Positions 39,701 through 64,000 of a stretch of 64,000 nucleotides of DNA are shown here, in pieces; within the stretch, counting starts at the first letter, position 1; each line of letters starts with the position of its first letter. Both the position numbers and the translations under genes were made by a program. This DNA is from Perna viridis (Eukaryota): positions 24,242,001 through 24,306,000 of the forward strand of contig CM074518.1 of NCBI GenBank assembly GCA_037379345.1, in the 5' to 3' direction. The notes under the pieces are model-generated. The model had not been told where the DNA came from. It made no database searches and saw only the letters and a list, made by a program, of their open reading frames with translations.

Positions 39701-40008
39701 ATGGGTAGATTATTAGTGAAAGTTGATACCATTCAGTTTCATACATTTATTCAGGTTCTATAAAAATAAACAGAGATTTACAGAAAAAATCCACTCATCA
39801 GACTATACTAGTATAAAGGTACTCAGATAAAGAAACGGCTTTAGTTCCAAATATGAATTATGCTCCAAAACTTCACTGTGCTAAGTGCTAAGGAACTAAC
39901 AAGTTGTAAGACAAAAATTCTGTTTCGAAATATAATAGTTTTTTTTATAATAGTCTGAATTTTACATATGTCCAAGCTAGTCAACATTGACTCTTTCAAA
40001 TCTTTGCG

Positions 40009-40733
40009 AAAGAGTAATCAACGGAACCAAAGTTATTGCAGTAATCAAAAGAATGTAGCCAAGGGACAAAGATCAGACATGGAAAACAGACACACACAAC
40101 AAAGAACATAAAGTAACTAAAATCATACATACAAAGTAACAAAAGTAAATGAGCAACTCGGACTCCACTAAAAACTGGGAGCATGGACCAGATGCACTGG
40201 TAGGGTAAGCGTCCTCTGTTTTTCTAGATACACCTGCCGAGTTGCTCATAAAAAGTCAAATCCGGGGTAGACAAACGAGGAAAGGAAAACTATGACCCGT
40301 TAAATAAATCAGTTTTCATGGCACAGATGGATACACCATAACGATTCACGAGTTCATGATGACGAGCATAAAACTTCTGTAGTGATGGCTTCAATCTTGT
40401 AGCAACATAACCCTGTTCCATGAGCCTATTTGTTAAGAGTTTTAGCGCGATAAAAAAAAGTCTACGTAGTTTTGGCAAGCTCTGGCATAACGTATGAGTT
40501 GTGATATGAACACTCCATACGCAGGTGCTGAAGGGATGTTGCCACAGGTGAGAGGAAAGTTGACAATTCTAAATGAAAAGTCATCACGTTTGTCGTAAAG
40601 TTTTCTTTTACCATCGATTTCTTTGTTTAGGTCAAGTTATAAGGCTGACCTCACATTGTCTGTAGCATCCTTTATCTCAAGTTCTTTGGGTGTAAATGCG
40701 ATGTATCAAATCCCCGAAATTAGGATTGTTTAA
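40009..40733 (-). mobile_element. Naiad-type Penelope-like element, 3' part
   Basis: Close reverse-complement homologue of 7350-8075 (YARACQNY, QGYVATRLK, HHELV). Confidence 0.85.
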
Positions 40734-41788: not shown

Positions 41789-41854
41789 GTCAGGATGGCC
41801 GAGTGGTCTAAGGCGCTGTGTTCAGGTCGCAGTCTGATTCACCAGGCGTGGGTT
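41789..41854 (+). pseudogene. trnL-CAG: 5' 66 nt of tRNA-Leu(CAG), broken in the T-loop (GTT|CGA) by Tx1 element A
   Basis: gtcaggatggccgagtggtctaaggcgctgtgttcaggtcgcagtctgattcaccaggcgtgggtt, 3 mismatches to the intact gene at 61461; also shares the 22-bp upstream flank atttcg(t/c)cacttttgtcacaat. Confidence 0.92.
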
Positions 41855-44205
41855 TACATTTTGCCGCTCCGTTTTGGTGAGTTCAGCTATATCTATGTGT
41901 TCAGATACATTTCTGCATGCTTGATATTGTTTCATTGATGCAAAGAGATAGGACACTTGTCAAATTTTGTCGTATATTTCCCCTTTTCCTGTCATTTAGT
42001 GCAGGAAATAGGGGGGAGAAAGGTGCGTTTGATTCGCTTTTACTGATTGAACCTAAAACCAAATTTAAATAATGAGAACAGAGCACAGAGAGCCATTTGT
42101 ATTTGGTTGTAAAGCAGGAGATAGGCCAAGACAGTACACAAATAGAAAGAAGATATATCAGAAGAAATGTGCGGTTAAGATTATGAATCTTCCGAAAGCA
42201 CCTGGAACTCCAGAAAAAATCATTAAGGCTCCTGAGCAGGTTTGTGGTGAAAATACCGTTTTAGCAGTTGTCCGGGATGAAATTGAACATTGGTATTGTG
42301 TTATTATCGACAGTGAAGAAAATGCAGATAAATTAACAAAGGGAGTTAATATTGATAGTTTTCATGAATGTTTATTTGTTTTTCAAAACTCAGTAGTGGT
42401 TTCAGTTACTCACTTGCCTGCTCACGTTAGTTATGAATCAATTCTTAATGTACTGATAGAAAAGAATTGAAAACCATTATCTCAAGTTTCTAGACATGTT
42501 CATCCTGGAACTGAAGTTGCAGATGGGACAAGGGATGTCCGAGTTCAGTTTCCTCATGGGATTACTTCCCTTCCCTGGTCAATGGAATTTGACACAGGAG
42601 TAGGAACATGACCATCACAGGCAGTTATGTAACTATTGTGGATCTCCTGGTCATACGTACAGACAATGTCCACAACTAATATGTTTCAACTGTGATAAGC
42701 ATGGTCATAAAGAGCATGAATGTAAGATATCTACGTGTGATAATTGCAAGAAAAGACTTAGGCATTGTTTTTTGCAAAGAAAAGAAACATGCGTTTGTCC
42801 TTGTTTCACTTGTGACAAGATGGAGGAAGATGTAAGTGCAAAGAATGTAGATTGGTAACTGAGAGGTGTATTGGCAGAAAGGAAGATAGTGATCATATAA
42901 TTAAGGATAAAAAGGGAAACAACACCAAATGAGAATGGAGGTGAGGATGATAAAAAAAAATTACGAAGTTGAAATTGTAGATGTTTCAGATACAGTGGAA
43001 AGCGAGAAACAAAATGAGGATTTTACATACATTGTATCAAGTTACTGAAGAAGAAGACATTGTCGGCGAGAAAAAGTCAGCAAAGGATGTGGAAGTCACT
43101 ATAGAAGTTGAAGATGTAGTCTTCGGGGCCGCGGAAAATAGTGATGATTTGGTCTTCGGGGGCAATAAATATAGTGATAATTCGGTCTTCGGAGCCAATA
43201 AAAGCAAGGATAGTGTGGTCTTCGCGACCACTTTAGACAAAAACGATGTAGTCTTCGGGACTATAGAGGAGAGAAATGAGATGGTCCTTAGGACTATGAC
43301 GGATAGTGAAAAGATCGATCTGATCGTTTGTGATGATAATATGGTCTTCGGGCCAAAGATGATTCCAATGTGGTCTTCGGGACCACATGTGATGATAAGA
43401 CTGACAGACAATGTAGTGAAGGTCTTACTGGAGATGGATCAACTGAAGGAATCGCTCAAGGACAGAAAAGACAAAGAGATGATATTTCAAGAACAGGTGA
43501 CTGATGATGAAACTTTTTGTACATAAGCATGTTGTAAAAGAAAATGTTAAAGAATGTAATATTGTTAGTGATGATATGCACACTGACACCCTCTCTAGTG
43601 GTGATAACACTGAAGTCGATGTCACATTAGAAACAGACCTTGATGTGTCCTGTTCTGGGAGCTCAGATGTAAGTGCTTCTGAATTTTGTACAGTAGAAGG
43701 TGAAAAAAGAAGGAACAAGATGAAATTTTATCCGAATGTAAATAATATTAAGGAAGACAAATCCAGCCAAAAGAATATTAACAATGGAGGTGTTTAATAT
43801 ATGTTTCACTTTTTTTATTTTTGCAATGGTGCTGTTTGTACTGGGTTGAGAGACGTTAATAAATTTAAGAAGTATGTATAAATTATTGATAATAGTAGGA
43901 TTGATTTCTTGTTACTAAAAGAAATCTTCTGGGATGATGATTTTATTTTGAATATTGATAGAATGTACGACGGTCGTGTTTTATATTTTAATAGTAGTAC
44001 TAAAAGACAAGGTGTTGCTATCCTTGTACATAAAAGGTTTAAACATAATATACAATTAATTTCAAAGGATGATGAAGGTAGATTTGTACATGTCCAATTT
44101 GAACATGAAGATTGTATTTATAACATATTGAATATTTATGCATATCATTATTTTTTAATCAATATATTAGCTCCTATGATAATATTTATTTTATCGGGTG
44201 ATTGG

Positions 44206-44411
44206 AAAGAGTAATCAAGGGAACCAAGGTTATAGCGGTAATCAAAAGAATGTAATCCAGGGACAAAGACCAGACATGGAAAACAGACATACACAACAAT
44301 GAACATAAAGTAACTAAAATCATACATACAAAGTAACAAAAGTAAATGAGCAACTGGGACTCCACCAAAAACTGGGAGCATGGACCATGTGCACCGGTAG
44401 GGTAAGCGTCC
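44206..44411 (-). mobile_element. About 205-bp Naiad 3'-terminal fragment inserted in the Tx1-A APE domain
   Basis: Matches 7875-8075 in reverse; splits the GDW|NTT motif. Confidence 0.85.
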
Positions 44412-46225
44412 AAGAATACAACTTAGTCATATCTGGATAGATCTAATAAAACTGTGCACAGAAACGATATGAGTTATAACTTACTTTGTATTTGATGATA
44501 GATAACAATTTATATGATGTGTGGAGAACTAAAAACCCTAGTGTTAGAACTTTTTCATGGAAACGAGTTGGTGATTTTTATTTACAACAATCAAGATTGG
44601 ATTATTTTCTCATTACTAGAAATTTGTCAAATTTTGCACAATATGTAAAGTATAAAGAGACTTCTTTAAGCGATCATTCTTTTGTGGAAATGAGAGTTTT
44701 TGATGAAGTAGAAAGAGGTCCAGGTGTATGGATTTTTAACAATACATTGTTGGATAATGACGATTATGTAACAAAATGTTTAATATTATTGATGACAGTA
44801 AGAAATGTTCTCTTTTTGATGATGATGTATTGATTGGTGGGATAATTTAAAATATAGAGTTGAGAAATTCTCTAAACTTTTTAGTAAGAGAATTGCAAAA
44901 GACAAAAATGCTGAGTATTATTGTATACATAATAAGATGCAAACGTTATGTATGAGAATTGCAGAAGGAGAAAATGTAGATGTAGAAAGATATGACAACG
45001 TACAGTTAGAATTAAGTTTATTAGAATTAGAGAAATGTAAAGGTGCTATCTTGAGATCAAAAGCTTTTTGGGCCACAGAAAAAGATAACTGTATAAAGTC
45101 TTTTTCGAATTTAGAAAAGTACATCCAAGAAAGTAACTGTATTGAAGAAATAATTGATTTTGATGATAAAACTACTGTTTCTGATACTGATGGTTTGTTA
45201 GACATACGGTATAGATTTTATAATAAGTTGTATTCATGTGTGGAAATAGACAAAAAATAAATGGATGTTTTCTTGCAAAATATTGATGTGAAAGTTGATG
45301 ATATTGATCAAGGAGTATGTGATAGTGATATTACTGGAGACGAGATTTTTGTGGCATTACATAAAATGTCTAAAAATAAGAGTTCAGGATCTGATGGGCA
45401 TACAGTGGAGTTTTATTGTAAATATTATCATGTTTTACATGACATTTTACTGAAGGTGTTTAAGGCATTTAAAAAATGTCACACCTTATCAAGGTCTATG
45501 AAAAATGGTGTACTGTCTCTTATTTATAAGAAAAAAGGTGATAAAAGGGATCTAAAGAATTATAGACCTATTTCATTGTTGCAGGTAGGTTACAAGATTT
45601 TAGCACGTGTCATGTCAAATAGATTCCAATCAGTACTTTGCAAGATAATATCAAATAGCCAGTCATATTAGAGATACAATAGCTAGTTACGTGATGTAAT
45701 TAATATGGTAGATGATGATGATGTAGAAGGGTATATTTTAAAATTTGATCAAGAGAAAGCTTTTTACAGAGTGTCTCATGATTATCTCATTAGAGTATTA
45801 GATAGTGTTGGTTTTGGATGTAAATTTATTAATTGGATTAGGATTTTGTATACCGATATTCAAAGTACTGTCAAGTGTAACGGTTTTTTTAACAAAACAT
45901 TTTATGATACGAAATGGTATTAGGCAAGGTTGCCCTATCAGTGCTATATTGTATGTTTTATCAGCAGAACCACTGTTAATGGCAATTAAGAAACATTGTA
46001 ATATTAATGGAATACGTATACCTTACAGTAAGAAAACTGCAGTTTTGTTTCAACATGCAGATGATACTACCTTGTGTTTGAGCAATAAGAATCTGTTGAA
46101 TGTACTTTCGATGTATTTAATTTATATAGTAGAGCATCAGGTTCTAAGATTAATAGAAGTAAGTCTTAAATTTTATCTATCGGAAAAGGAAGTTTGACTG
46201 ATGTTGATTAGACTGTACTTGGATT

Positions 46226-46419
46226 AAGGGTAATCAAGGGAACCAAGGTTATAGTGGTAATCAAAAGAATGTAATCCAGGGACAAAGACCAGACATGGAA
46301 AATAGACACACACAACGAAGAACATAAAGTAACTAAAATCATACATACAAAGTAACAAAAGTAAATGAGCAACTCGGACTCCACTAAAAACTGGGAGCAT
46401 GGACCAGGTGCACCGGTAG
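46226..46419 (-). mobile_element. About 195-bp Naiad 3'-terminal fragment inserted in Tx1-A ORF2
   Basis: Near-identical to 44206-44400; the Tx1 reading (VCEKCIQVLG) resumes after it. Confidence 0.85.
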
Positions 46420-48273
46420 AGTTTGTGAAAAATGTATTCAAGTTCTTGGCGTTTATGTTGGTGTAGACATTGATGTATGTAATGACATGAATTCGAAGGA
46501 TAAGATCAGAAAAATAAGATGTATTGATAATATGTGGAAACAAAGACAATTGATTTTATCTTGTAGAAATATTGTAATTTCTTCTTTATTGGTATCAAGA
46601 ATTTGGTATCTATTAGCTGTTTCGCCAATACCCGAAAATGTACTGACAGATTTAAAGCAAATATATATTGAATTTTTTAGGGATTCTAAGTCTAATTTAA
46701 TACAATATGCAACTATTAATGGTATGAAACAGGATGGTGGCTTGAATTTTCAAGATATTTATTTAAAAATGTTTTCATTTAGATTGAAATTTTAAGGAAG
46801 ATTTTTAAACCCTGGGTGCAATTGTATTTGGAAAAGTACCTTTAGCTATTTTTTGAGCAGAGTACATTGTATGAATCTACTAGGCCTGTTTTATTTTTGC
46901 GTTTAAACAAAAATGATTTATTATGTTTACCGCATGTGTACAGAGAAATGTTGGAAGCATGGCAGTGCATTAGAAAAGATGTACCTTTTAATATAATAAA
47001 CTGTGATGTTTACAATCAACCACTGTTTTATAACAGCTTGATGTTTGTGTCTGGTAAAGAATGGGAATGTTTTATAAAAGCTGGTATTGTACTAGTTAAA
47101 GATATATCATATGAAGCTATACCTGGATTTTTGCCAGTTCAGGCAATTTTTGATATGAAGAGATAAAAAGAAATAGATGTTAATTTTAACATTGTCAGGA
47201 AATTGTATATGTTATTATTGAATCATATTTCTGTTGAGTGGAAAGAAGTCGTTTTGACAAATTGTTATTTGAAAATTGAAGAACTCTCCCAATTTTATGT
47301 TCAATTTGACAGTAAAGTGTGTGATATGACGCTATGTACAACAAAAAGGTTTTATACATTACTATTACAAAAGTGTTTTATTAAACCTAAATGTTATGAA
47401 TTTTGGTATGAACAATGTGGTATTCATGAAAGTGATTTCCGTTTTGTGTGGAAACAAGTACATAATTTTTGGAAACCATCTGAATGTATTGATCTAGACT
47501 TCAAATTGTGTCACAACAGGATTTTTACTAATGTTAAACATTGTAAGATTGGAATAATAGGAAGTAGCACGTGTCAAAATTGTGACTGTGAGGAGGAAAG
47601 GGTCGTTCGAGTTTATGACCCGAATCAGATCTTCAATGTCTTTTGAAGTGTATATATGTTTGACTACACATATTTGATTTTTTCATGATATTTCCGTAAT
47701 GTTTATGCATTGTTTATTATTGTATTTTCGATATTTAGGCATTTTATAGAATATTTGGCAGCAATGAGCCAAGCGATAGAATCACATTTTTTTGCAAAAG
47801 TAAATGATAACATAGATATTTTAAAGGACCTATTAGGCGTTATGCTCAGATTTTTTGTTGTTATAGGACAATCAGGTTTACTTTTAGAAGATATGTAGGC
47901 ACAACATTTTTGAGCATCTACGTAAAATGCACTTTTATGGTGTTCTTGTCATTTAGTTTAGACTTGTCACATTGAATTTTCATTTTGCTCACCAGTCGCA
48001 AAGGCTCCAATTTTTGCTCATTTTTCGAAATTTTTTTTTCAATGAAAACACATACTAGGATTGATTGTTTTGACATATTTAGACGTGACACTGATATTCA
48101 TAGGCCTTTTATGATTATTAACGCTGATTTATGATGTTTTTCTGTACTTATTGGAACATGTGTTTATGATATTTACATTTTGTACTGTAGCTTTTTACCT
48201 TCCTCCGGGGAGGAACAACTCAATTAGGCTTAGGACATAACAGTAAAAAGCCTAGGGACCACGACAGGCAGAC

Positions 48274-50665
48274 ATGGCATCAGGGGGATCAGATGAAGAT
48301 AGAAGAGTCAGAACGATGACAGATAAGGCCAGACCCATATACGAAGAAAGAGTAAACAAACAATTCCGAATACTAGCTCAACTGAAAAGTAACCTTGAAG
48401 CAACAATTGATCTCATTGATAGATACTCAGATGACAATGTCGCATTGCAAGAAATAAGTGACCACCTCCATGATGGAATGACCAAATTTTATGACACGGT
48501 TCAAGAATTCAAACAATATTTAGACTCTCAACACATGGAAGAAATTATACAAGAAACAGTAGTTGAACATCTTTATAGTGAAGTTAACAATATGGTAAAA
48601 GATGGACTTAGAAAAATAAAATCAATCCTGAAACCTAATGAACAACCAATGGAAAGCCAAGTGATACAAGATTCGACTACAAGTTTAACACTAAGATCAG
48701 AAGCAGCAGAATCTAGTGAGACTTAAACAACAGAAAAACAAGTGGAACAAGAAACTAAATCGGAGGCAGAAAACAAACCTGATCATAGTGATAGAGACAG
48801 AAAATCAAGTGGCCGTCACGACAAAGTTCATCACATTCACAATCAAGCAGGATGCTTCTAATAGAAAAGAAATCGAAACTACAGATTGCTAAAACACGAC
48901 TTGCAATGATAGAAAAAGAAGAACAACTCAAGAAACAGCAGAATGAGTTAGAAACAAAAGTGAAAGAAGAAAAAGCATTAGCAGAGGCTAAACTAGAAAA
49001 ACAACGTTTTGGCTTTAAATCCACTCTGAATGTTCTCAAACATCAAAGAGAAATGATGAAGCCTGAGGCGGAATTTTCAGCAATTAACGAGTTATTACAG
49101 GATGGTGAATCTGACATTGAAAGCAAAAAAGCCAACAGTTTAGGCATACAGGAAATATTCTCTACAGAAAAAGTTGCCAAATTTGTGTCTATGCATGATT
49201 ACAACGATGTGAAGGAAACATTTCAGAGTACATATGTGAAAATCGATAAGAAAGACACTGATGATATCATTCAACAGACTATCTACACAGTGAATAAAGT
49301 TGTAAATCCCGAGAAAAATGACTCTGGTCTTCATACACTGAATCCTAATGTTCAGGAATTCATTCCAATGAACAAAGTTGATACAGAAATCAACAACAAT
49401 GTTACACCCGCCAAAGTATACACTCCAGTAGTCTCAAATCAACATCCAAGACAAATCAAGAGTATAGATCAGCAGTCAGTGAACTAACAAAATACATCAT
49501 AAAAAAGACTTGTTGCTCTCTAGATTAACATGATGATAGACCAGAACGATATCTCAGCTGGAGAAGTGGTTTCATGAACATTAGAACGGAGTTAGGAACA
49601 ACTAGTGCAGAGGAACTAGATCTTTTGATCCGATGGTTGGGTCCACAGTCAAAGCGACAGGCCATTAGTCTACGAGTTGCTAATGCTCACAATGAAACAG
49701 AACCTCTGAATAAGATCTGGAGAAGACTCGATGAGAGATACGGGGCGCCTGAGAAAGTTGCAACATCTTTGAAGGATCGACTAGATAAGTTTCCGAGAAT
49801 CTCAAGCAACGAACCAGAAAAACTCTATGAACTATCTGATCTGCTTTCAGAAATACAGTCAGTCAAGGAAAATCCACAGTATAGTTTAGTCTTGAGTTAC
49901 TTCGATTCATCGGTTGGAGTAAACGCAATCGCAACCAAACTTCCACTCTTTGTACAGAACAAATGGATTGAATATGGTAGGAAAAAGAAGACGGCTCCTG
50001 AGTTGATGTATCCACCTTTTTCAGTGTTTGTAGAATTTGTACACGGTATGGCTGTACACTTAAATGATCCAAGTTTTCACATAAGAACAAATGACACTCG
50101 TAACGAATTTCCAAGAAAAGATAGGAAACCAGAAATTAGATTCAACAATCCGCCTAAGACACATGGCACCCGAATTATATCCGCTAAAACCGAGATAGAC
50201 AGGGAAAGCTCAAAGAAAGTGATATGTCCTCTTCATGAAAACGGACAACATACATTAGCGACATGCAAGGTATTCAACGGAATGTCACTTGATGAGAAAA
50301 GACAAATCGTTCAGAAAAATGGACTTTGTTACAAGTATTTGGTTGGAAAACATCTAGCTAAGGATTGTCGAGATAACGTCAAATGTGAGAAATGTAATAG
50401 CAGAAAACATAGTACTCCATTTCACATAGAACAAAAACAACCCGACAACGATCATGGCGGGGAACTAAATAATAAATCAGTAGAGACGAAGTTTACACAA
50501 ATTTGTGGAGATCAAGCCAATGGACTTCAATTTAAAGGCAAGTCATGTGTAAAAACCGTTTTGGTCAAAGTTTATCCAGATGGTAAACCAGAATTAAGTA
50601 TCCAAACTTATGCGACAATTGATGATCAGAACAATAGGTCAATGGCTCGAAGTGAGTTTTTTTAA
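48274..50665 (+). pseudogene. BEL/Pao gag (DUF1759-like, Cys/His knuckles) and protease start, disrupted
   Basis: ELDLLIRWLGPQS, IWRRLDERYG, CPLH...H....C, GLCYK...HLAKDC...CEKC...HSTPFH, and protease-like TYATIDDQNNRS. Confidence 0.8.
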
Positions 50666-51248
50666 CATTTTAATGAAAACTCAGACTTTACAGAATATAC
50701 TCTTGTTTCATGCTCAGGACAAACAAATTGTTCAGGACGATTAGCCAATGGTTATGTACTAGAATCAGTGGATGGGAATGTACAGATGAAATGTCCCACT
50801 ATACTAGAATGCAATGGGATACCGAACTCAAAGCATGAGATCGCAACCCCAGATGTTGCAAGACAATATAAACATTTACAGGACCTAGAAGGATTCATTC
50901 CGGAGATAGATGCACAGGCAGATATCCTGCTTCTGATAGGCCGTGACATGATGCCAGCACATCATGTCATGGATCAAAGGATCGGTGGAGATAACGAGTC
51001 CTACGGACAAACATTGAGACTAGGATGGGCGATAATAGGCGAGTCATGTTTGGGACTAGTACACACGTCTCCAATAGAATAAGACTGCAATTTTAGCAAA
51101 TGGAAGAGAATCTCATTTTGAACCTTGTGAATACAATTTCAAGGTAAAGGACAATATCGGAAATGAAACGTCAAGTCAGATCTTTCAACGTACTCCGGAA
51201 GATGATTCAACAGGTCTTTCTCAGGAAGACAGAGAATTTCTTGCGACA

Positions 51249-52889
51249 ATGGAAAAGGAATTCGTAAAGGCGGAAAATGGAAAGTTAAGTGCTCCACTTC
51301 CGTTTAAGAAGGATCGTCAAGCCTTACCTAACAACTACGCTCAAGCGAAACAGAGAGCTGAAAATCTAGCACCAAATCTCAAAAGAGACAAAATGAAACA
51401 AGGACATTTCATAGAATTCATGAGGAAATTCTTTGAGAATGATCACGTGGAAAAAGCACCCCATCTACAGGAAGGTCAGGAAGTATGGTATTTGCCAATA
51501 TTTGGTGTTTACAATGCTAAAAAACCCTCTAAAATCAGAGTAGTATTTGACTCCTCGGCTCAACATGAAGTCATCTGTTTAAATGATGTATTGCTCAAAG
51601 GACCGGATCTAACGAACAATTTGGTTGGTGTTCTGATAAAATTCCGCAAAGGAAAGTATGCAGCAACTGCGGACGTAGAACAGATGTTTTTCAATTTTGA
51701 GGTAAATTCAGAACATAGAGACTTTTTGAGATTCATCTGGTTCGAGGACAATAATATTGATAAACCTCTGAAGGAATTTAGAATGAAGGTTCATGTTTTC
51801 GGGAATTCACCGTCCCCAGCCGTTTCAACATTTGGCTTGCGAAAGGCAGTTTGTAATCACAAAGACACCACATGTGACGATGTTTGTCATTTCATTCGTG
51901 AGAACTTTTATGTTGACGATGCGCTGGTTTCTGCTGAAAACACAGAGGAAATTGGTGATTTGATCAGTTCGACACAACAAAGGCTAATACAGGGCGGTAA
52001 AATTAGGCTACATAAGATAATATCGAACAGTGGTGAGGTATTGAGAAACTTTTCATCTGAAGATATCGCGGATGGAGTAAAGGAAATGGACTTTGACAAG
52101 GACGCTTCTTTTCTGCAAAGAAGTCTTGGACTCACTTGGGATGTCATCAAAGACATTTTTACATTCAGACTATCGTTCGATGACAAACCATACACAAAAA
52201 GAGGACTTCTATCAGTGATCAACGAAATATTCGATCCTCTCGGCTTCGCCGCACCAGTAGTTCTTAGTGGTAGACTCATTTTAAGACAAGCAATTCAGGA
52301 TAGCTCTTTGCAATGGGACAACCCCCTTCCGAATGAGTTATTGTCCAAATGGCAAGAATGGAAGTCATCGCTGAAAGACTTACAGGACATTGAAATCTCG
52401 AGATCATATACTGAGTTGGCATTTGATCAGCAGAACTGTGAGTTACATGTTTTCGCAGATGCGTCCAAGGAGGCTATCTCAGCAGTAGCGTACATCCGAG
52501 TAATAGAAAACAAGAAGTCGAAATTTGGATTCATCATGGGTAAATCCAAACTGGCTCCGAATCATGGACATACGATACCTAGGTTAGAGCTATGTGCTGC
52601 TCTTCTTGCGACAGAAATTGCATGCTTCATTCAAAGACAACTAAAACTAGAGCCAAGTCAAACACATTTTTATACAGACAGTCAGGTAGTTTTAGGCTAT
52701 CTCTACAATGAAACCCGACGTTTCTACGTATATGTGAGCAATAGGGTTGATAGAATTTTGAAGGTGTCCACTAAGCATCAGTGGCATTTTGTATCAACAC
52801 AGTTTAATCCTGCAGATCATGGAACTAAACCATTAGACTCAAGTCGTTTGAAACAGACTGTTTGGTTGTCAGGACAAATATATTTGTAG
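51249..52889 (+). CDS. BEL/Pao reverse transcriptase plus RNase H (Peptidase_A17 family) fragment
   Basis: WYLPIFGVY, KIRVVFDSSA, GPDLTNNL, VFGNSPSP, NFYVDD, ELHVFADAS and TIPRLELCAA. Confidence 0.9.
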   Translation: MEKEFVKAENGKLSAPLPFKKDRQALPNNYAQAKQRAENLAPNLKRDKMKQGHFIEFMRKFFENDHVEKAPHLQEGQEVWYLPIFGVYNAKKPSKIRVVFDSSAQHEVICLNDVLLKGPDLTNNLVGVLIKFRKGKYAATADVEQMFFNFEVNSEHRDFLRFIWFEDNNIDKPLKEFRMKVHVFGNSPSPAVSTFGLRKAVCNHKDTTCDDVCHFIRENFYVDDALVSAENTEEIGDLISSTQQRLIQGGKIRLHKIISNSGEVLRNFSSEDIADGVKEMDFDKDASFLQRSLGLTWDVIKDIFTFRLSFDDKPYTKRGLLSVINEIFDPLGFAAPVVLSGRLILRQAIQDSSLQWDNPLPNELLSKWQEWKSSLKDLQDIEISRSYTELAFDQQNCELHVFADASKEAISAVAYIRVIENKKSKFGFIMGKSKLAPNHGHTIPRLELCAALLATEIACFIQRQLKLEPSQTHFYTDSQVVLGYLYNETRRFYVYVSNRVDRILKVSTKHQWHFVSTQFNPADHGTKPLDSSRLKQTVWLSGQIYL

Positions 52890-53244
52890 ACTCTCAAGAA
52901 CAATGTCCTGATTCGTTCGACATTGTAGAACCAGAAAGCGATAAAGAAATAATGCCACAAGTTCAGGTTAAGAAGACATTGATCAAGTCTTCGATAGGAA
53001 CATCCAGATTTGAAAGGTTTTCTTCTTGGAATAGATTAGTGAATGCGATAACTGTCTTAAAACAGAGACTTTCAAAACACTATCAAAGAAAACATGCGAC
53101 GGTAGAAAATCGAAGCAAGGTAGGCTTCATGAATGAATCTGAAGCTTTTATCATAAAAGCAGTACAGGAGGAATTTTTTGACAGAGAACTTGATTCTCAT
53201 AAGAACGATAGACCGCTACGGAAGGATAGCAGTATCATTGATTT

Positions 53245-54501
53245 ATGTGTGTTGCAGGTCGATTACGTCAGTCAAAACTAGAAACAGGCGAGAAAACACC
53301 GATAATCATACCGGGCAAAAGTCATTTTGGCACTTTGATTGTAAGACACTTCCACAATCATGTATATCATCAGGGTAGACACATAACAGCAGGATCCATT
53401 CGATCAAATGGATACTGGATAACAGGAGGAAAAAGACTCATAAACTCAATCTTGTATAAGTGTATTCAATGTAAGAAACTCAGAGGTAAAGTTAGTCAAC
53501 AGAAAATGGCAGATCTTCCAACAGATAGAATTACGCCAACGCCACCATTTACATGTGTTTCAGTTGACTGTTTTGGTCCGTGGAACATCGTTTCAAGACG
53601 AACCCGCGGAGGCCTAGCACAGGCTAAAAGATGGGCTGTGATCTTCTCCTGCCTTGTGACACGTGCAATACACATTGCAGTTCTAGAGGATATGTCATCG
53701 GCGTCTTTCATTAATGCCCTACGTCGGTTCGTTGCGCTAAGAGGACCAGTGTCAGAATTCCGATCAGATCATGGCACAAACTTTATAGTAGCGGTCAATG
53801 AAATGAACATTCAAGCAATAAATGTGCAAGATCAACCGATAGAAGATTTCTTGCAAGAGAAACGAATTGTGTGGAGATTTAGTCCACCGTGTGCGTCACA
53901 CATGAATGGAGCTGTAGAAGGGATGATAGGTTTGACTAGGAGAATTTTAGATTCAATGTTGATGGATCAAAATCTCAAACAATTGACACATGAAGTTTTG
54001 TGCACTCTCATGGCGGAGATATACTGTATCGTAAACAGTCGCCCACTTGTACCAGTTTCAAGTGATCCTATGGAACCAACAGTTCTCACGCCGAACGTTT
54101 TGCTCACTCAGAAAGTCAACCACAACGACATTGATGCAGAAAGTATCGAAACTTTTGAACAATTGAGCATCAAAGACATCTACAGATCAACTTCGAGGCA
54201 AGTTCAAGTTCTTGCTAATCAGTTTTGGAAGCGATGGAACTGTCAGTATTTACAAAGTCTTCAACGTAGGCGAAAATGGAATTCTGAGGAGCGTAATCTA
54301 CAACAAGGCGATGTAGTGCTGATGATTGAGGATAACGTACACAGGAGCCAATGGCCAACAGGAATAGTAGATGAAGTGTTTCCGAATAAATCTGAAGGAC
54401 TAGTCCGAAAGGTATCAGTGCGGATCATTCGAGATGGCAAAGCTACGAACTACATAAGACCCATCACAAAACTTGTGTTCTTGATGTCAGATAAGAGTTA
54501 A
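53245..54501 (+). CDS. BEL/Pao integrase
   Basis: H..V.HQG, C..C, MADLP, VDCFGP, FINALRRF, SDHGTNF and DUF5641-like QFWKRW..YL..LQ.R.KW...RPITKL. Confidence 0.9.
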   Translation: MCVAGRLRQSKLETGEKTPIIIPGKSHFGTLIVRHFHNHVYHQGRHITAGSIRSNGYWITGGKRLINSILYKCIQCKKLRGKVSQQKMADLPTDRITPTPPFTCVSVDCFGPWNIVSRRTRGGLAQAKRWAVIFSCLVTRAIHIAVLEDMSSASFINALRRFVALRGPVSEFRSDHGTNFIVAVNEMNIQAINVQDQPIEDFLQEKRIVWRFSPPCASHMNGAVEGMIGLTRRILDSMLMDQNLKQLTHEVLCTLMAEIYCIVNSRPLVPVSSDPMEPTVLTPNVLLTQKVNHNDIDAESIETFEQLSIKDIYRSTSRQVQVLANQFWKRWNCQYLQSLQRRRKWNSEERNLQQGDVVLMIEDNVHRSQWPTGIVDEVFPNKSEGLVRKVSVRIIRDGKATNYIRPITKLVFLMSDKS

Positions 54502-54665
54502 ACCGAAAAGTGTGGAATTGTGAAAAAGTGTTTTGTACATATTGTGGGTTTATATTTGGTGAATTTGTTTATTTTGAAACATTTTTGAAACTGATTTGAT
54601 ATATTTTATCGAAATGTAGTAATTTTGAAATCAAAATTAGGCGGGGAATGTGGTGTCCCAGTACA

Positions 54666-57600
54666 TTATAAATCTTTTAAACCCAAACAGATTTTTTCCG
54701 AGCAAAATGTTTTTAGTTTCTTCAATGTTTCGCACTACGTTGCAGACTCGGAAATAACAGATAAATTAGTTAATCTTGGCCTTGAAGTGAAGTCATCGAT
54801 GAAACGAAACGTTCACCCAGGCACTCAAGTGGAAAATGGCACGAGGTATGTTGTGGTGAAATTCAACAATGAAATTAAAAGCCTCCCTTACACGATGAAA
54901 TTACCAACAGGTGTTAACTCGTTTGAGTATATTCGTGTGACACACGATAATCAGAGAAAAGTTTGTACCAAATGCTTTGAAACCGATCATGTGTTTTCGA
55001 AGTGTCCAGAAAACAGATGTTTCAAGTGTTTAAGGCTTGGGCACTTAGCCCGATTTTGTAACACTCCTCCATGTAGTAAGTGTAATCTGCATGTGACGAT
55101 ATGTAAGTGCCCCAGTTGGCCGATGACACACATGAATCCCAAAACAATTATGATAATGAGGAGATCGACACTGATGAGAATGTCGAAAAAGATGAGATAG
55201 GCAGTGATGATGAGTATGATGATATCAAAGATGATGATGTTGATGTTGCTAATGGTAGAGAAAAAGGTGATGATCCTGTTACAAATGAACATGATGAGAG
55301 CATAAATGATAACAATCATGATGATACACATAAATCTGGAGAAAATAGTGATGATAATGGACAATCTGACGAGGAACTATACCTGATGGCCTCTGGTGGA
55401 AATCAGACGGAACAATTAGACAATAACTCTTTTGTTGATTTACCTGTTAAAAAAGTAATGAAAAATCAACTAGCCCTCCCCCTCTACTTTACAATCCCCT
55501 CCTCATCACACTAAGTCTGCCCCCTCTGGTATAAATAGTGATACTGAGGTGACTGATGACGAGTTGGCTGTGAATATGGTGAAAATTCGCCGCAAAAGAT
55601 TGGTGAATGGTCCAAAGTTTTCGAAAGATGAATTGAAAAAGATAAGAAAGGATCCAAGAAACAAATTAACAGAATCAAATTCATCCGATTCAATCTTTTT
55701 CAATTTATTATTATCTTTCAGATGATAAGTATTGTTTCTTTCAATGTAAATGGTCTTCGAGACTTGTCAAAATTTCAGCAGTTATGTACTTACTGTTCTG
55801 AAAATTATTATGATGTTGTAGGGTTACAAGAAACTTTTTGGTCAGAAGATTTAATTGATAATTTGTCTAAGTTCTGGAGTTGTCAAATATTTCATTCATG
55901 TAGTGATATTCACAGACAAGGTGTAGCCTTTTTAATAAGCAAAAAAATAGAAAATGAAGTAAAATATATACAGGGTTTCGATGGTAGGTGTATTCAAATA
56001 CAGCTTCACCAGGATGACAAAGTTTTTGACATTGTTGTGCTCCTAATTTAGTCCTTGAGAGGAGCAAGTTTTTTGACAGCATATTAGATAATTTATCTGA
56101 CCCCGAAAATGTCATTCTGTTGGGGGATTTGAATACATCTATGTCAACACTTGATAGGTGTGGCAGATCACAACACACTGTAGACAAAGCTTATAAATCT
56201 ATTAGTAAATTTTGTGACAATTTCAACCTTTATGATGTATGGCGCTCAAGGAATCCAAATGCTCGAGTGTACTCTTGGCGCCGAGTGGTTCAAAATATTC
56301 TCATTCAGAGTAGGATTGACTTCATCTTTATTCCAAAATCTTTTTCTGTTTTTGTCAAAAATATTTATCATAAACACAGCACTTTCAGTGATCATTCTTT
56401 AGTAGTTTTAAATATAGAATTTTGTGAAGTTGAGAGAGGTCCAGGATTATGGGTGTTTAATAACACACTGTTAAATGATGAAGAGTTTGTTTTAAAAATT
56501 GAGAAATTAATAGAAACTGAAAAACAGTGTAGACAATATGATGACGAGCCACTGATTTGGTATGATAATTTAAAATTTAAGATTAAACAACTATCTAAAG
56601 TAGTTTCAAAAGATAAAAAGCGTGCCGAAAGATCGGAATATTTTAAAATTCAAAGAGAATTCGAAAAGTTCTCTCTTGCTGTGGCAAATGATGAAGAGGT
56701 TGATATAAATAAATTTGAAGAAATTAAATTAAAACTTAAAAGTCACGAGGACATAATCTGCAAAGGAGCTATATTACGCTCTAAAGCTCACTGGGCTATT
56801 GAAGGTGATACAAATTCTAAGTATTTTTTAGAGCTTGAAAAATATAAGCAAAAAAGTAATGCTATCAAAGAGTTGAAAACAAAAGAAGGTATCATTGTAA
56901 ATACAACTGAACAAATTTTAGAAGAAGTGAGGTCCTTTTATGAGGAGTTGTATTCCTGTACGCACATTAACAAGAATAGCGCACATGAGATTTTAGATTT
57001 TATTACCAAAAAAGTTCCGGAAAATGATATGAAAAATTTAGAAGCTGATTTTACTTGCGACGAAATTAAAACGGCACTATTTAGTATGACAAAAAATAAA
57101 TCGCCGGGTCCGGATGGTTTAACTGCGGAATTTTTTTGCAGGTTTTATCATTTGTTTGAAAATATTTTTATGAAAATATTTAGTATTATTCAAGAAGAGC
57201 AGATTATGACTAGATCAATAAGACATGGGGTTATAACCTTAATCTATAAAAATTCATTAAAGAATTTCAGACCGATTTCTTTATTATGCGTTGATTACAA
57301 AATAATGGCTCGCATCATGTCGAACCGACTAAAATTCGTTCTGCCTAAATTAATATCGAATAGCCAAACGTGTTGTATTTTAGGTCGTGATATTGCTGAT
57401 ACGACTTCGAGTATTCGAGATCTGATAGAAATAATTGAAAACGATAATTTAGAAGCATATCTGATAAAAGTAGACCAAGAGAAAGCCTTTGATGAAGTTG
57501 ATCATGATTACCTTTTTCTTGTTTTACAGAAATTTGGCTTTGGTCCAAAATTTATAGAGTGGATTAAAATATTTTACAAAAATGTTAACAGTAGTGTCAA

Positions 57601-60600
57601 ATGTAATGGCTTCTTGACCAAGTATGTTAAGCTTAAAAATTCTATAAAACAAGGATGTCCGCTTTCCGCGTTATTGTACGTTTTCGCCGCAGAACCACTA
57701 GGACAAGCCATAGCAAAAAATCAAACTATACGAGGAGTAACAATTCCGAAATCTGAAAGAGAAGCGCGAATATTTCAACACGCAGATGACACGAATATTT
57801 TCGCAAGTGACAAAAACTCGATAGATTAAGTTTTCGATGTTTTGAAACTTTATAGTGATGCGTCCGGTGCGAAAATCAACAAGCAAAAATCAGAAATTAT
57901 GTGTCTCGGGTCCGGAAATTTATCTGATAACGAGCTAAATAAATTAGAAATACAAAGATGTGAAGATGTTACAAAAGTGCTAGGCATTTACGTTGGTATA
58001 AACCGAAATGCGCGTGACGACCTCAACTGGAGAGACAAGCTTAAGAAAATAAAAACTATTTTATTTTTCTGGCTAAAACGAAATTTAACATACCCGGTCG
58101 AGCCACGGTTTTGACATCGTTAATTATATCACGGTTTTACTATACTCTCACAGTTTATCCACTACCGGAATATGTAAAAAATGAACTTCGAGTAGCCGTC
58201 ATGAAGTTTCTGTGGCAAAACAAAGCGCATTTAGTGAAATATCAAACTAAAAATAGTTGGTGAAAAAATTTCCGGTGGGTTAAATATCCCTGATATTTTT
58301 ATAAAGATGCAAGCATTCCGGATAAAATTTCTCCGGAAATATTTAGATCCTGATTGTACATCCATTTGGAAAGTAACACTAGATTATTTTATTTTCAAAA
58401 TTGATCACATGAATCTTAAGCAGAATATTGTGTACACATTTTTGAATTCTGCTCAGCTGAAAAGGTTGCCTCTTTATTATCAGGAGATGTTTGCAGCTTT
58501 TTACAGAATAAAATCCAAGTTGAAATTTCAAATCGAAGTTCAACATGCCTACAGTAATCCGATATTTTGTAACCCGAAAATAACACACAACGGTAAGAAG
58601 CTTCTTTTTGACGACTTTGCACAAGCCGGTTTGATTCAAATTAAGGATGTGTGTTATGAATTCATTCCTGGATTTTTCACTTCTGATGCGATAGTAGAAA
58701 TTATTCATCGTAGATTTCCGGACGAAAAACCATACACAATCGAATCCGCTTTTAACAAGATATTGCGTTGTATTCCTGACGAATGGAAAATATTGCTCCG
58801 ACATAACAATCCGGTCAGTGCTAATTGCGTCCCACAAATAATGCTTTGCTTTGAAAATAATGCAGAAATTCCATTATTAACGGCTGTAACAAAACAAATA
58901 TACAAACTCTTCATGTCTACTTTCTTTGAAAAACCGACCTCTGAGTTAAAGTGGGCGGCGAAATTTCCATAGATCAATTTTAGACAAGTGTACTCAGTAG
59001 CCAATCAGGTGGGACTTTGTCCAGATCTTCATTGTTTGAATTATAGGCTGGTTAATAGAGCAATTTTCACACTTGATAAACTGTCTAAATTTAGTCAGGT
59101 AGATACCAATACATGTAAAGCGTGCGGGTATTGTACTGAGGATTTAGCACACCTGTTTATTTTTTGTACGAAATTAAAATCAGTACATGATTACCTGAAA
59201 GATTTATTACATAACATATTTATTAATGTCCCACCTGATATTGTAAACATGATCAATTATGACGAACTGATATATTTTGGCTATTTGAGGTCTTCCAAAA
59301 TAGTAAATGTTCATTTTTCGAACTTTTTATTAAGTATTGCTAGATTGTGCATTTTTAAAGTCAGGAATATTCTCGTTTTTAAAGGTAAAAACTTGGATAC
59401 TTTACGTTTATTTAAGTACACAATGCAGAAGTATGTAGTACGCATATTCATTTTATAAGATGAAAAATCAAATGAGGTTTTTTGAAAAATATTTTTTACG
59501 AAACAACACACTATTGAAAATACAGAATGATAAGGTAGTTTTATTTCTGTAGCTACTGGGGAGGTAGACTTCAGTCTGGCAGTTTTGGGGTTCTAATTAT
59601 TTAAATTTTAGTTGGTACATTAGTCGTTGCCCTGCACGGAATTTACTTATTTACTGTTCGGTAGAGAGGCGCTTGCCACCTATCGTTAGGTTCGACTAAG
59701 TCTGGTGCGGGCCGATGGTGATATACTTTGTTGCATTTAGTAGATTGGTAGTCGTTGTCTTTTATCTACACAGTGTACAGTAAACAAAATGGATAACTTT
59801 ACAATTTACACATACACGTACATGAATGGTATGAACACATAGAAATGACGTTAATAGTTACTTTGGGACTGTAGATTATATCTATTTTCTCTCTAACCAA
59901 TTGAATGAATGCAATGATACTTATGCAAATGTGGTCACGAATGATTACATAAGGCTGTGAAAACATCGAAAATTCTATCTGTAGTTTATTTCGGGCCATA
60001 ACATGTGAAAATGACTTTTGTTGGTTTGGCTTGCGGTGTTGTGTAACTCCTTTGTGGTTAATCCATATTAAGAGTGGGCTTCAAAACTATTAATTTCGAT
60101 GTTATTTAGAACATATGAAATATTTTCAATGGTGTGTTGTAATATTTTAAACACAGTACAAATGAGGTTTTCCATCTATTATTTACATTTGCAGCAGGGT
60201 GACTAATGATAACACCCTTAAATATATTAAAGAGTATTTAAGTTAGCCGTGTATACACATTAAATTTACGAGTAAGATGTAACGGTACCATATGTAACTT
60301 TATGAGGGTGACTAATAATAACACCTGAAAGAATTCTAAAGGGTTTTAGTCATATATACATATTAAAAAAGGTGACTAATGATAACACCCCAAAACTTCT
60401 TAGAATCAGGGTGACAGTACAAGTCAAAACTGCCCGTTGCTATGGTTCAGTATACAAAGAAGAATAACTTAAGTAATTATGGGTCTTCTATTGGTTCCGG
60501 ATTATAAAATTATATAAAATTATATAAATTATATAAAATTGCTCGCTGCTATGGTTCAGTATGAGTATACAAAGAAGAATAACTTAAGTAATTATGACTT

Positions 60601-60918
60601 TAATGAGACCACAGTTGTGATCTCCCCTGGATAGTGCATGCATATAGACAGGATCTTCTATTGGTTCCGTATTACTTTTTATATACGATGAAACCAATAG
60701 ACGGCACTGATAACTTCTGCACCCAACATTCAATACTATACAAGTAAATAAAGACATTGGATTAATTACATCAATGATGGAATCCCTCACAGGTGTACAA
60801 GATTAACTCCACATTATAGTATTTAATATTTAGCACTGTGATAGCGGATTTCGGGGATTGTCCGATTCCGTTTTTATTGTATTGTATGTATTATAATTTT
60901 AATAAATGATAAAAAAAA
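54666..60918 (+). mobile_element. Tx1-clade LINE B (5'-deleted, 3'-complete with poly(A))
   Basis: Partial ORF1 with CTKCFETDHVFSKC and CFKCLRLGHLARFC; ORF2 from 55722 to about 59550 (SFNVNGL, GLQETFW, SPGPDGL, QGCPLS, FQHADDT, CKAC..EDLAHLFIFC) with a few frameshifts; about 1.4-kb 3' UTR; aataaa at 60901-60906 and A8 at 60911-60918. Confidence 0.92.
56120..57829 (+). CDS. Tx1-B ORF2 core (APE C-terminus plus RT), largest intact segment
   Basis: 569-aa ORF containing GDLN, SRIDFIF, SDH and RT motifs through HADD. Confidence 0.85.
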   Translation: MGDLNTSMSTLDRCGRSQHTVDKAYKSISKFCDNFNLYDVWRSRNPNARVYSWRRVVQNILIQSRIDFIFIPKSFSVFVKNIYHKHSTFSDHSLVVLNIEFCEVERGPGLWVFNNTLLNDEEFVLKIEKLIETEKQCRQYDDEPLIWYDNLKFKIKQLSKVVSKDKKRAERSEYFKIQREFEKFSLAVANDEEVDINKFEEIKLKLKSHEDIICKGAILRSKAHWAIEGDTNSKYFLELEKYKQKSNAIKELKTKEGIIVNTTEQILEEVRSFYEELYSCTHINKNSAHEILDFITKKVPENDMKNLEADFTCDEIKTALFSMTKNKSPGPDGLTAEFFCRFYHLFENIFMKIFSIIQEEQIMTRSIRHGVITLIYKNSLKNFRPISLLCVDYKIMARIMSNRLKFVLPKLISNSQTCCILGRDIADTTSSIRDLIEIIENDNLEAYLIKVDQEKAFDEVDHDYLFLVLQKFGFGPKFIEWIKIFYKNVNSSVKCNGFLTKYVKLKNSIKQGCPLSALLYVFAAEPLGQAIAKNQTIRGVTIPKSEREARIFQHADDTNIFASDKNSID

Positions 60919-60982
60919 TAAGGCGCTGCGTTCAGGTCGCAGTCTGGTTCTCCAGGCGTGGGTTCGAATCCCACTTCTGACA
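60919..60982 (+). pseudogene. trnL-CAG: 3' part (positions 21-84) of tRNA-Leu(CAG), directly after the Tx1-B poly(A)
   Basis: taaggcgctgcgttcagg...gttcgaatcccacttctgaca is identical to 61481-61544 and has the same downstream spacer. Confidence 0.93.
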
Positions 60983-61460: not shown

Positions 61461-61544
61461 GTCAGGATGGCCGAGTGGTCTAAGGCGCTGCGTTCAGGTC
61501 GCAGTCTGGTTCTCCAGGCGTGGGTTCGAATCCCACTTCTGACA
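61461..61544 (+). tRNA. trnL-CAG: tRNA-Leu(CAG), intact
   Basis: Acceptor GTCAGGA/TTCTGAC plus A, A box TGGCCGAGTGG, anticodon arm CTGCG-TTCAGGT-CGCAG, long variable arm, B box GGTTCGAATCC. Confidence 0.97.
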
Positions 61545-61556: not shown

Positions 61557-61878
61557 GGTAACATTTTACAAGTATACTTTCTTCATTCATTTCGAAAACC
61601 GATTTAGAAGTACTCTTAATCATGGTCGGTTTTTGGATGCATCATCTGTAGGATGTAAACATTGTGTCGTCCGAGAATTTTTCTTTGTTTGGTGAGTTCT
61701 TCGCCGTATTTTTGTGTGTAAATATTTCCTGAACATTGTTAGATCATATTTGCTTTAAAGTGATAATAGTTTCCATATAAATATTCGTTTTATATCCCCT
61801 TTTCCTGCTTTTTCGTAGCAGGAAAAGGGGGGAGGAAAGGTGCGCTCGATTCTTTTCTTGAGATCCATCTAAGAACTA

Positions 61879-63450
61879 ATGGCGAACTTTGAAAGAAGTG
61901 GACCAGAAAGGTCCAATAGAAAGTCTTTTAATGTTGAAAATGAATTTTCAAAGGAGAAAACTGTTTTAATTTCATGTGTACTTGAAAGTTCTGGGAAAGT
62001 AGAACCTGATTCAGTAATTGATGAAATTGAATTGAAATGTGGTAGAGGAAGTGTTATAGCATGTGTGCCAAAGACCGGCAGTGGATATGAAGTTGTATTT
62101 AGAGAGAGGCAGATGATGGAACCAATTCTTGGTGATTTATCAGTCAGTGGTAAAACATTTAAAGTGACTGAATTAGAATCCAGCTTCAGATATGTTTCAA
62201 TACTCAACTTGAGTATGTATGTAACTGATGCTGAAATCATTGAAAGATTTTCAAAAATTGGAGTTGATGTGGTGTCACCAATTAAAAAACATAAGATGAA
62301 GTCGAAAAACTATATTTATGATGGAACAAGAGTATTTAAGGCAAAACTTCCACCTAATATGAAATCCATCCCCTACTCGATGAAGTTCTCAGTGAATGAA
62401 AAAGAAACTGCATACTATCGTGTGATCCACAATCATCAAGTTAGAGTGTGCCATGGGTGTTTTAGCCCGGACCACATATATAAAGATTGTCCTGATTTCA
62501 AGTGTTTTGAGTGTGGCGAGCAAGGTCATATTAGTAGGAAATGCTTGAAAAATAAGTGTTCTTTCTGCTTTTACAAGAAGGAGAACTGTAAGTGTGAAAC
62601 CTTGAGGAAGACAGGCGTGGGTAATTCATGTACAGAATTCCAAACTGATTCCTACTCAGGCATTTTTAAGGATCATGACATTCAACATTCAAGTGACAGA
62701 ATGTTTCATACAGAAAATGATGATTCAAGTGATGTTTCTGAAGATGACGAATGGGCACAGAACACCAGAAGACGTGAAAATGTTGTCAGTAGTGTTCATT
62801 CCCGTTGTCGTGATGATGTCAGTCATGTTGACACTAATGGTGATGCTACCCATACAACTGTGGAGGCGGTTGTTGAGCCGATAGCGAATGGTGATAATGT
62901 TCCGAATGGTGTTGCTAGCCAGTGTATTGATGAAAGTAACGGTGCTAGTCACGATGGAGAGAATCATGAAGTGGATGGTGATGACGTTTCTGAGGTGTTA
63001 GATGATGTTTGTGACATGGTTCATGGTGTTGAAGATATTGTAAGTGGTGAAGATAAAGAAAAAGTAGAATCAGAAATCGATCATGACAATCTTACTAATA
63101 ATGTAGATGTTAGCCATGTTAATTTGGTTGAATTTAATGATGTCTCTGGTGTATCTGAGAATAATGTTAAAGATATTGATCATATATCTAATATAGAAAA
63201 TACTGTCTCCTCTCAGGATAAAATCAAAAGCCAGGGAGGAGTCAGCCATAGTACTTGTGATACTTTGGATGATTTTGAAATGGACACTCATTCATTGACA
63301 AGTGATTGTCAGTTGGCGAATGGTGATGAGTTTACTGTTGTGGGTAAGAAAAAATCCTACTTGGGTATCAAAAGGCGAAATAAATTTCAGATTAAGCCTA
63401 ATTTAAAGGCAGCTAGATTGTCAAATGTTAAAAATAAATTAATGAAGTAA
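61879..63450 (+). CDS. Tx1-C ORF1 (RNA-binding protein with CCHC zinc knuckles and acidic tail), 523 aa
   Basis: YDGTRVF, IPYSMKF, RVIHNHQVRVCHGCFSPDHIYKDC, CFECGEQGHISRKC and C-terminal KRRNKF; homologous to ORF1 of A and B. Confidence 0.92.
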   Translation: MANFERSGPERSNRKSFNVENEFSKEKTVLISCVLESSGKVEPDSVIDEIELKCGRGSVIACVPKTGSGYEVVFRERQMMEPILGDLSVSGKTFKVTELESSFRYVSILNLSMYVTDAEIIERFSKIGVDVVSPIKKHKMKSKNYIYDGTRVFKAKLPPNMKSIPYSMKFSVNEKETAYYRVIHNHQVRVCHGCFSPDHIYKDCPDFKCFECGEQGHISRKCLKNKCSFCFYKKENCKCETLRKTGVGNSCTEFQTDSYSGIFKDHDIQHSSDRMFHTENDDSSDVSEDDEWAQNTRRRENVVSSVHSRCRDDVSHVDTNGDATHTTVEAVVEPIANGDNVPNGVASQCIDESNGASHDGENHEVDGDDVSEVLDDVCDMVHGVEDIVSGEDKEKVESEIDHDNLTNNVDVSHVNLVEFNDVSGVSENNVKDIDHISNIENTVSSQDKIKSQGGVSHSTCDTLDDFEMDTHSLTSDCQLANGDEFTVVGKKKSYLGIKRRNKFQIKPNLKAARLSNVKNKLMK

Positions 63451-63452
63451 CA

Positions 63453-64000
63453 ATGGAGTGGAATGTGTCATTAGTTATGAACTTTTGTTTTGTGATGGCT
63501 ACTTTTAACTTCATTAGCCTTAATTGTAATGGTTTGTGTGACAAAAATAAAAGGGATTGTATTTTTGCATTATGTATTGAAAGAAAATATGACATTGTTT
63601 GTTTACAGGAAACATTTTGGACTGATAAATTGTATGAGGATATTCAAATTGATAAAACTGTATGGGATGGTGAGATTTTTGCCAGTAATAGCATTTGTAA
63701 TAGGAAAGGGGTTGCCATTCTTGTAAGTAAAAGGTTGAAAAATGTTTTTAAAGTTTGTGAGAGTGTATGTGGAAGATTAGTTCATATACAAGGTAAAATT
63801 CTTGACAAAAGTTTGGACATAATTAATTTGTATGCTCCAAATAATGTTAGTGAAAAGTGTAATTTTTTCAATGATTGTAAAAGTAAAATATATGGAGATG
63901 AATTTATTATAATAGCAGGTGATTATAATACCACTCTTTCCCCTTTAGACAAAAGTGGGAAAACTGTTTTTTATGCTGACAGATCTTTAAAATGTCTGAC
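63453..64000 (+). CDS. Tx1-C ORF2 N-terminus (APE endonuclease), partial at the window edge
   Basis: Manually translated, open from ATG 63453 (or 63495) to the window end: ISLNCNGL, DIVCLQETFW, KGVAILV, INLYAPN, IIAGDYN. Absent from the ORF track, presumably because no stop lies in the window. Confidence 0.9.
   Translation, partial: MEWNVSLVMNFCFVMATFNFISLNCNGLCDKNKRDCIFALCIERKYDIVCLQETFWTDKLYEDIQIDKTVWDGEIFASNSICNRKGVAILVSKRLKNVFKVCESVCGRLVHIQGKILDKSLDIINLYAPNNVSEKCNFFNDCKSKIYGDEFIIIAGDYNTTLSPLDKSGKTVFYADRSLKCL

Follow-up and report, generated by a model that had tools for sequence, protein, structure and literature searches.

Introduction

Target-specific mobile elements are divided in the literature, as represented by the accessible part of PMC3706591, into sequence-readers that insert inside genes and host-factor-tethered elements that insert beside them. 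The closest described systems in targeting are the dictyostelid L1-clade LINEs TRE5-A, TRE3 and NLTR-A/B, together with Ty3, Ty1 and Tj1, in which one element serves many tRNA genes and 5S by Pol III position (PMC5911963, accessible text). TRE5-A is, like the elements described here, an APE-type LINE, and the same text gives two precedents for tethering, TRE5-A ORF1 with TFIIIB and Ty3 with TFIIIB. As far as that text describes them, these elements insert upstream or downstream of the gene, in fungi or amoebae, whereas the insertions that we describe lie inside the transcribed region, break the gene and occur in an animal host.

The closest systems in structure are the fish LINEs Dewa, Mutsu and Keno of the Tx1 clade, to which our elements would belong by their layout, and which likewise occupy multicopy small-RNA arrays: Mutsu is found in 5S and Dewa in tRNA-Leu arrays (PMC3706591, PMC4494074, both in their accessible parts). 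These sources describe one family per target, with Dewa in the spacer, whereas single families here use 11-23 target types. Dada DNA transposons also insert in 5S and, close to the A box, inside tRNA genes (PMC8869645, PMC3706591, accessible parts), but differ in their DDE transposase and their target-site duplication (TSD) of 6-7 bp, and each Dada family is described as using its own tRNA by sequence similarity, with some targeting U6.

Results

Two LINE insertions and a broken BEL/Pao element at the edge of a tRNA-Leu(CAG) array

The window analysed here is a stretch of 64,000 nucleotides from Perna viridis (C8:24242001-24306000). A tandem array of tRNA-Leu(CAG) genes (unit ~540-562 bp) has its left edge in this window and continues ~51 kb beyond it; unit homology starts at 41767. 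The features at this edge are as follows.

41789..41854, + strand: tRNA-Leu(CAG) positions 1-66, the diverged left-edge unit of the array; its final 3 bases are common to element A (microhomology)
41855..47599, + strand: element A, a decayed Tx1-like LINE (APE-RT) with 86-90% identity to a full-length 6.0 kb family copy (L080)
44208..44413: ~200-bp interspersed repeat inside A ORF2, with further copies at 40008-40214 and 7875-8078
46232..46417: second copy of this repeat inside A ORF2
47593..48242, + strand: BEL/Pao 5' LTR, lacking its first ~228 nt and joined to A through 4 nt of microhomology
48243..54648, + strand: BEL/Pao internal region with broken frames (DUF1759, RT, Peptidase_A17, integrase, DUF5641) and a polypurine tract at its end
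54649..54668, + strand: BEL/Pao 3' LTR, of which only the first 20 nt are left
54669..60918, + strand: element B, a Tx1-like LINE that is young (98% identity to full-length 6.6 kb copies), starts at family position 437 and retains its poly(A) tail
60919..60981, + strand: tRNA-Leu(CAG) positions 21-83, identical to the majority unit, at B's 3' junction
61461..61543, + strand: intact tRNA-Leu(CAG) gene
61624..64000, + strand: element C, which belongs to a third family of Tx1-like LINEs and is full-length at 5.9 kb; the window holds its 5' part, with the 5' junction at unit position 163

Element A lacks ~30 nt at its 5' end, where it is joined to the tRNA through the shared bases, and is broken inside ORF2 at the BEL/Pao join, its final ~520 nt and poly(A) being gone. 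The middle element was assigned to BEL/Pao on its DUF1759, Peptidase_A17, integrase and DUF5641 domains, its LTRs and its polypurine tract, although both LTRs are incomplete; the 5' LTR has matches in the solo LTRs L275 and L276 (~900 bp, 92-93% identity). Two deletion joins, one between A and BEL/Pao and one between BEL/Pao and B, thus removed the 3' junction of A and the 5' junction of B. Since A has no 3' end, B has no 5' end and a broken BEL/Pao element lies between them, A and B represent two insertions. Reading A and B as a single element interrupted by BEL/Pao was rejected, as they have separate ORF2 regions with ~49% identity as family proteins. We also rejected the idea that the target sequence is carried on the element 5' end, as full-length A copies start alike after unrelated flanks.

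The poly(A) of B meets the tRNA-Leu(CAG) gene at position 21, and so does the 3' junction of C beyond the window end. All nine poly(A) junctions in this array are at tRNA position 21/22, and its 5' junctions fall at positions 25, 29, 34, 66 and 163 and 10 bases upstream of the gene.

The first-pass annotation of this DNA had drawn attention to a 46-nt overlap, tRNA positions 21-66 being present both before A and after B with three differences in the upstream copy. We confirmed this overlap (41809-41854 and 60919-60964): the copies are alike at 43/46 bases (93.5%, E 4e-12 in a comparison of the window with itself), each of the 3 mismatches is in the upstream copy, and the downstream copy equals the array majority unit. 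Any tRNA segment will recur in a tandem array, so the overlap is by itself no proof of duplication from one insertion, and overlaps read at junctions in such arrays are unsafe as TSDs. The upstream piece is as diverged as the age of A permits and the downstream piece is the present-day unit, and we infer that the two 46-mers are best read as parts of two separate insertions. The chance of three mismatches in 46 at 2% divergence is P 0.06, which is weak evidence against a duplication by B.

Several further features were observed at this locus. Families A and C share a purine/pyrimidine hairpin in their 5' UTRs (window 41975-42035 and 61791-61852; 84% conserved). Left of the array, the window contains a 47-bp satellite, two RT fragments and a DUF268 ORF (5446-7100, 12941-13486, 29982-31013 and 35805-36764). 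The array spacer contains an LTR element of 8.9 kb at C8:24339832-24348772, which has a 5-bp TSD and two identical LTRs of 867 bp.

3' junctions across the genome fall in Pol III-type genes

It is established for target-primed reverse transcription that the 3' junction is set by the first nick. We collected the tails of 8 probe families from retrieved loci, scoring all candidates for B, D and F and the top 40 of 75 for A and top 40 of 249 for C, with at most 20-30 loci taken per search, which gave 174 distinct 3' junctions, a count inflated by neighbours within retrieved arrays. All but four of them (170/174) are in tRNA, 5S or tRNA-like genes. Matching to a library of this genome's genes placed 151 junctions, with 136 in tRNA genes, 13 in 5S and 2 in a tRNA-like gene; the 23 unmatched junctions were assigned by eye to tRNA genes (9), tRNA-like repeats (10) and sites elsewhere (4). 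In samples free of neighbour bias, 19/20 B loci and 20/20 A-like copies are in Pol III-type genes. Surviving insertions differ as a sample from fresh ones.

The tRNA targets comprise 31 anticodon types for 18 amino acids, among which near-identical anticodon variants may be swapped. Matched junctions outside 5S lie at +20 to +24 in 130/138 cases, all in sense orientation, and those in 5S rRNA genes at +27 to +29 in 13/13 (mainly +27/28). tRNA and 5S genes have type 2 and type 1 Pol III promoters, respectively, and families A, B, C and D each use both, with the 11-23 target types per family mentioned above. B copies are 99-100% alike with open ORFs, and two of them that are 100.0% identical over 6,595 bp lie one in tRNA-Gly and one in 5S, where the nick sequences are unlike. 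ORF2 identity among families is ~50%, except in the closer pairs C/E and A/A2.

Three further kinds of repeat were noted in these loci. A tRNA-like repeat with A and B boxes (L083, L196-L199, L201-L204) carries insertions of A and of a distant D subfamily at the corresponding position; the tRNA-like targets had no family match in Rfam. Family G (L034:3803-5406) is ~1.6 kb long, has a C-like tail and one 277-aa ORF unlike ORF1, and uses the same sites; it is likely a non-autonomous partner. Family H, of similar size, was found in His and U6 arrays.

The nick position is probably set by the Pol III start complex rather than by the nick sequence

Most tRNA junctions fit a position 2-3 bases (range 1-4) after the D-loop GG, so anchoring on sequence or on the A box explains the majority equally well. 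Only 5S and the genes for His and Ile(TAT) separate the models. Families C, D and E share a 140-kb array of His and Lys genes, in which their junctions lie at +21 to +24 in Lys genes and at +12 to +15 in His genes. The 7-base upstream shift in tRNA-His was seen in 7/7 junctions (5 distinct events) from three families, despite the usual D-loop GG context of this gene. In Ile(TAT), 3/5 junctions are at +19.

A hand count on the flanks placed the start of a TATA-like motif at -31 to -34 in 11 tRNA types, at -42 in His and at -28 in 5S. The junction is 51-56 bp downstream of this motif in all 13 types, compared to a 14-base spread when counted from the mature 5' end. This count was made by eye on 13 of ~32 target types picked for a visible motif in AT-rich flanks, and tRNA-His also carries an AT-rich run at the usual TATA-like place.

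These results suggest, at a probability that we put at about 0.65, that the Tx1-like LINEs find their site in Pol III genes through a tether to the TFIIIC-dependent start complex and not through the nick sequence. Guidance by Pol III factors had been guessed at in the first-pass annotation and is now the best reading.

Alternatively, a relaxed Tx1 endonuclease might recognise an A box/D-loop motif directly, with 5S and His as look-alike secondary sites. The D-loop GG context of most junctions fits such a readout. The Tx1L endonuclease is sequence-specific in vitro according to the accessible part of PMC1950540, the B endonuclease has a hairpin loop of Tx1L length, and the available text of PMC8869645 describes Dada families as picking tRNA sites by primary sequence. 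Against this, His keeps the motif and is nevertheless cut 7 bases upstream in all five events, Ile(TAT) is displaced in 3/5 junctions, the 5S site has no evident shared motif, and families with ~50% ORF2 identity and differing loop residues use the same sites. We therefore consider a direct readout unlikely.

Accessibility would be another way to tie the nick to the start of transcription. In this case the element would have no tether, and its endonuclease would act where DNA lies exposed or melted as the open Pol III complex ends on its downstream side, in arrays that are nucleosome-free and strongly transcribed. This fits a start-site-tied position, a 2-4 base spread and a weak sequence preference. 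Evidence against it comes from a tandem U6 array (C2:52180000-52370000; L254-L273), in which the ~690-bp unit contains a U6 gene (214 seen) and an ~80-nt tRNA-like A/B-box gene ending in a T run. No tail junction was found in any of the 214 U6 genes in 200 kb of this array, whereas every 3' junction of its 27 inserts (10 distinct events) is in the tRNA-like gene (P ~0.001 for 10 vs 0); two 5' junctions of long overlaps land in U6. U6 also forms a Pol III open complex, yet received none of the ten events, and accessibility alone would hardly bring 170/174 junctions into Pol III-type genes when the genome measures 723 Mb, which makes this explanation, too, improbable. A caveat on the U6 comparison is that the tRNA-like gene is possibly dispensable, so that selection could remove insertions from U6 more strongly than from this gene.

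The tethering that we favour was also compared with 7SL, which is usually TFIIIC-dependent. None of 27 7SL genes in a 7SL/U1 array was struck (P 0.1 at an 8% rate), which is weak evidence against a simple TFIIIC rule. In this array (C2:48829000-48891000; L317-L322), where 7SL and U1 lie on opposite strands, a different LINE of 5.5-5.6 kb occupies one U1 site; it is present as three full copies with 10-15 bp TSDs and a 5' remnant at the array edge, and its ORF2 identity is 31%. Another distant LINE (~35% ORF2 identity to A) follows an apparent U2 snRNA 5' end at L331:1-100, recognised by eye and as in Keno; Rfam made no U2 call for L331:1-100 at the gathering score.

5' junctions vary and the 46-nt overlap is not a family rule

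To read both junctions, 20 A-like and 20 B-like loci from other contigs were examined at both ends where the DNA allowed. The 3' junctions are near +21 to +23 in both families, and the 5' junctions are variable, with no fixed position at 66. Overlap values were reduced by the unit length by hand and array twins were counted once; excluded from the tally were L111, a tandem B; L099 E, truncated where the locus stops; L081, for which no homologous flank could be reached on the 5' side; and all junctions with a 5' end beyond the retrieved DNA. The resulting 67 distinct events comprise 32 with overlaps of 4-19 bp (27 of them at 12-15, mode 13), 10 at 20-66 bp and 25 longer. A-family overlaps span 4 to 695, and element A of the window is alone among the 67 events in the range of 40-52 bp. 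Overlaps of 20-66 bp were five times commoner than the 2 predicted from a uniform scatter of the long class. This suggests that the 46 nt of A are likely a long true duplication made at A's insertion, and no family rule.

Overlaps of at least 87 bp may be either true duplications or joins between units. Among 12 of these checked for substitutions, 6 had none between the copies, 4 differ at sites with both alleles in intact units and 2 differ at private sites only, a readout blurred by later array turnover. Extra pieces were seen at some 5' junctions (L098, L113, L111 and L260), consisting of another family's 5' end, a same-family 3' piece or a tRNA-Lys fragment, which suggests template jumps.

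The first-pass annotation had proposed that A and B share one target with fixed nicks in the D-loop and T-loop, a 46-bp TSD being the normal product. Its first part stands, as both families have their first nick at 20/21 (3' junctions at +21 to +24 in several tRNA genes). A fixed second nick in the T-loop/B box is very improbable. A's 5' junction at 66, the A-family 3' junctions at 21-24 and the excess of 20-66 bp overlaps are what such a product would leave, but only one event in 67 falls at 40-52 bp, A is 5'-truncated and joined through microhomology, and A and B do not stem from one event. The annotation had itself named ordinary short TSDs centred on one site as the result that would refute it, and these form the commonest class; with variable 5' junctions and a mode of 13 the 46-bp TSD is rejected as a family rule. 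Least probable of all is its other proposal taken in full, that A cuts at 66 and B at 21 in different units with the intervening DNA deleted: DNA between A and B was indeed lost and the halves likely come from different units, but all A-family tails examined, including that of an A-like copy 28 kb downstream in the same array, are at the site of the B tails (A family, +21 to +24).

Discussion

A model for insertion at the Pol III start complex

Tethering to the start complex, the reading favoured above, would work as follows. The element ribonucleoprotein may dock on Brf1-type TFIIIB, on TFIIIC or on the Pol III that these recruit, and a candidate for the contact is the cysteine-rich tail of the ORF1 knuckle region. 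A loosely specific APE endonuclease would then nick the template strand close to where the start complex ends on its downstream side, ~51-56 bp past the TATA-like motif, and target-primed reverse transcription would fix the 3' junction. The second strand would be opened usually 13-15 bp further along and sometimes much further; alternatively, the cDNA end may be joined through microhomology or to another unit. At the locus studied here, the join of A at 66 would most likely be a long member of the overlap tail, dating from A's insertion and with its partner copy lost later, and the copy after B would be part of B's own target unit.

Docking on the Pol III initiation complex would explain why a single family can use 5S, tRNA-like repeats and tRNA genes of every kind but not U6. 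Ty3 is able to use U6; these families did not use it. As a general statement, it is somewhat better than an even chance that an animal LINE lineage docks on the TFIIIC-dependent Pol III initiation complex and cuts within the gene at a fixed distance from TFIIIB.

Relationship to Tx1 and other elements

The LINEs carry a Tx1-clade layout of two ORFs, with an N-terminal APE endonuclease, RT and a C-terminal zinc region in ORF2, and a poly(A) tail. One copy (L103) has ORFs of 422 aa and 1283 aa, with L1 ORF2p as the best solved match (E 9e-79). ORF1 has Gag-like zinc knuckles, for which the zf-CCHC hit in C ORF1, at E 0.001, is just below the curated cut-off with the motifs aligned. The B endonuclease scored 68.8 bits, with no gap in the loop, on the L1/Tx1L loop chimera LTx (defined in the accessible part of PMC1950540) and 58 on L1. 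Judged by this layout and the Tx1L-type endonuclease loop, the elements probably group with Tx1. The nearest named relatives are mollusc proteins with 36-43% identity over most of their length. A metagenome scan with B ORF2 found nothing and one with A ORF2 found two loci; a relative on a metagenome contig (41-45% ORF2 identity to A and B) has its 5' end directly after a tRNA-Gln array, and since the contig does not reach its 3' junction, this relative is no more than a lead.

In their targets, these families depart from the single sequence-defined site per family. This trait is common in the Tx1 clade but does not define it, so they represent a variant. They share with Pol III factor-tethered elements the use of many tRNA genes and 5S by each family at a set distance, and differ from them in that insertion is not outside the coding region. 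Nor do they insert like Dewa in the spacer: the tails in the tRNA-Leu(CAG) array are all within the gene, and only some 5' junctions are in the spacer. Dewa copies are reported to occupy more than one position, as if something besides the endonuclease specified the site, and Dewa may be the same phenomenon. The accessible parts of PMC4494074, PMC3747384, PMC5753468 and PMC10294476 do not describe the pattern reported here, and it was not found in the openly available literature; Repbase Reports, subscription journals and supplements may carry mollusc Tx1 target notes.

If tethering is true, this is Pol III factor-tethered integration in a metazoan that is intragenic and not flanking, and it might also explain Dewa. 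These families appear to break the split between sequence-readers inside genes and tethered elements beside them, in an animal and with young, intact copies that are testable. Controls are built into the genome: His and Lys genes within one array, U6 sharing its unit with the tRNA-like gene, and a separate LINE specific to U1. What emerges is a group of LINEs with position-specific, intragenic targeting of tRNA genes in general and of 5S.
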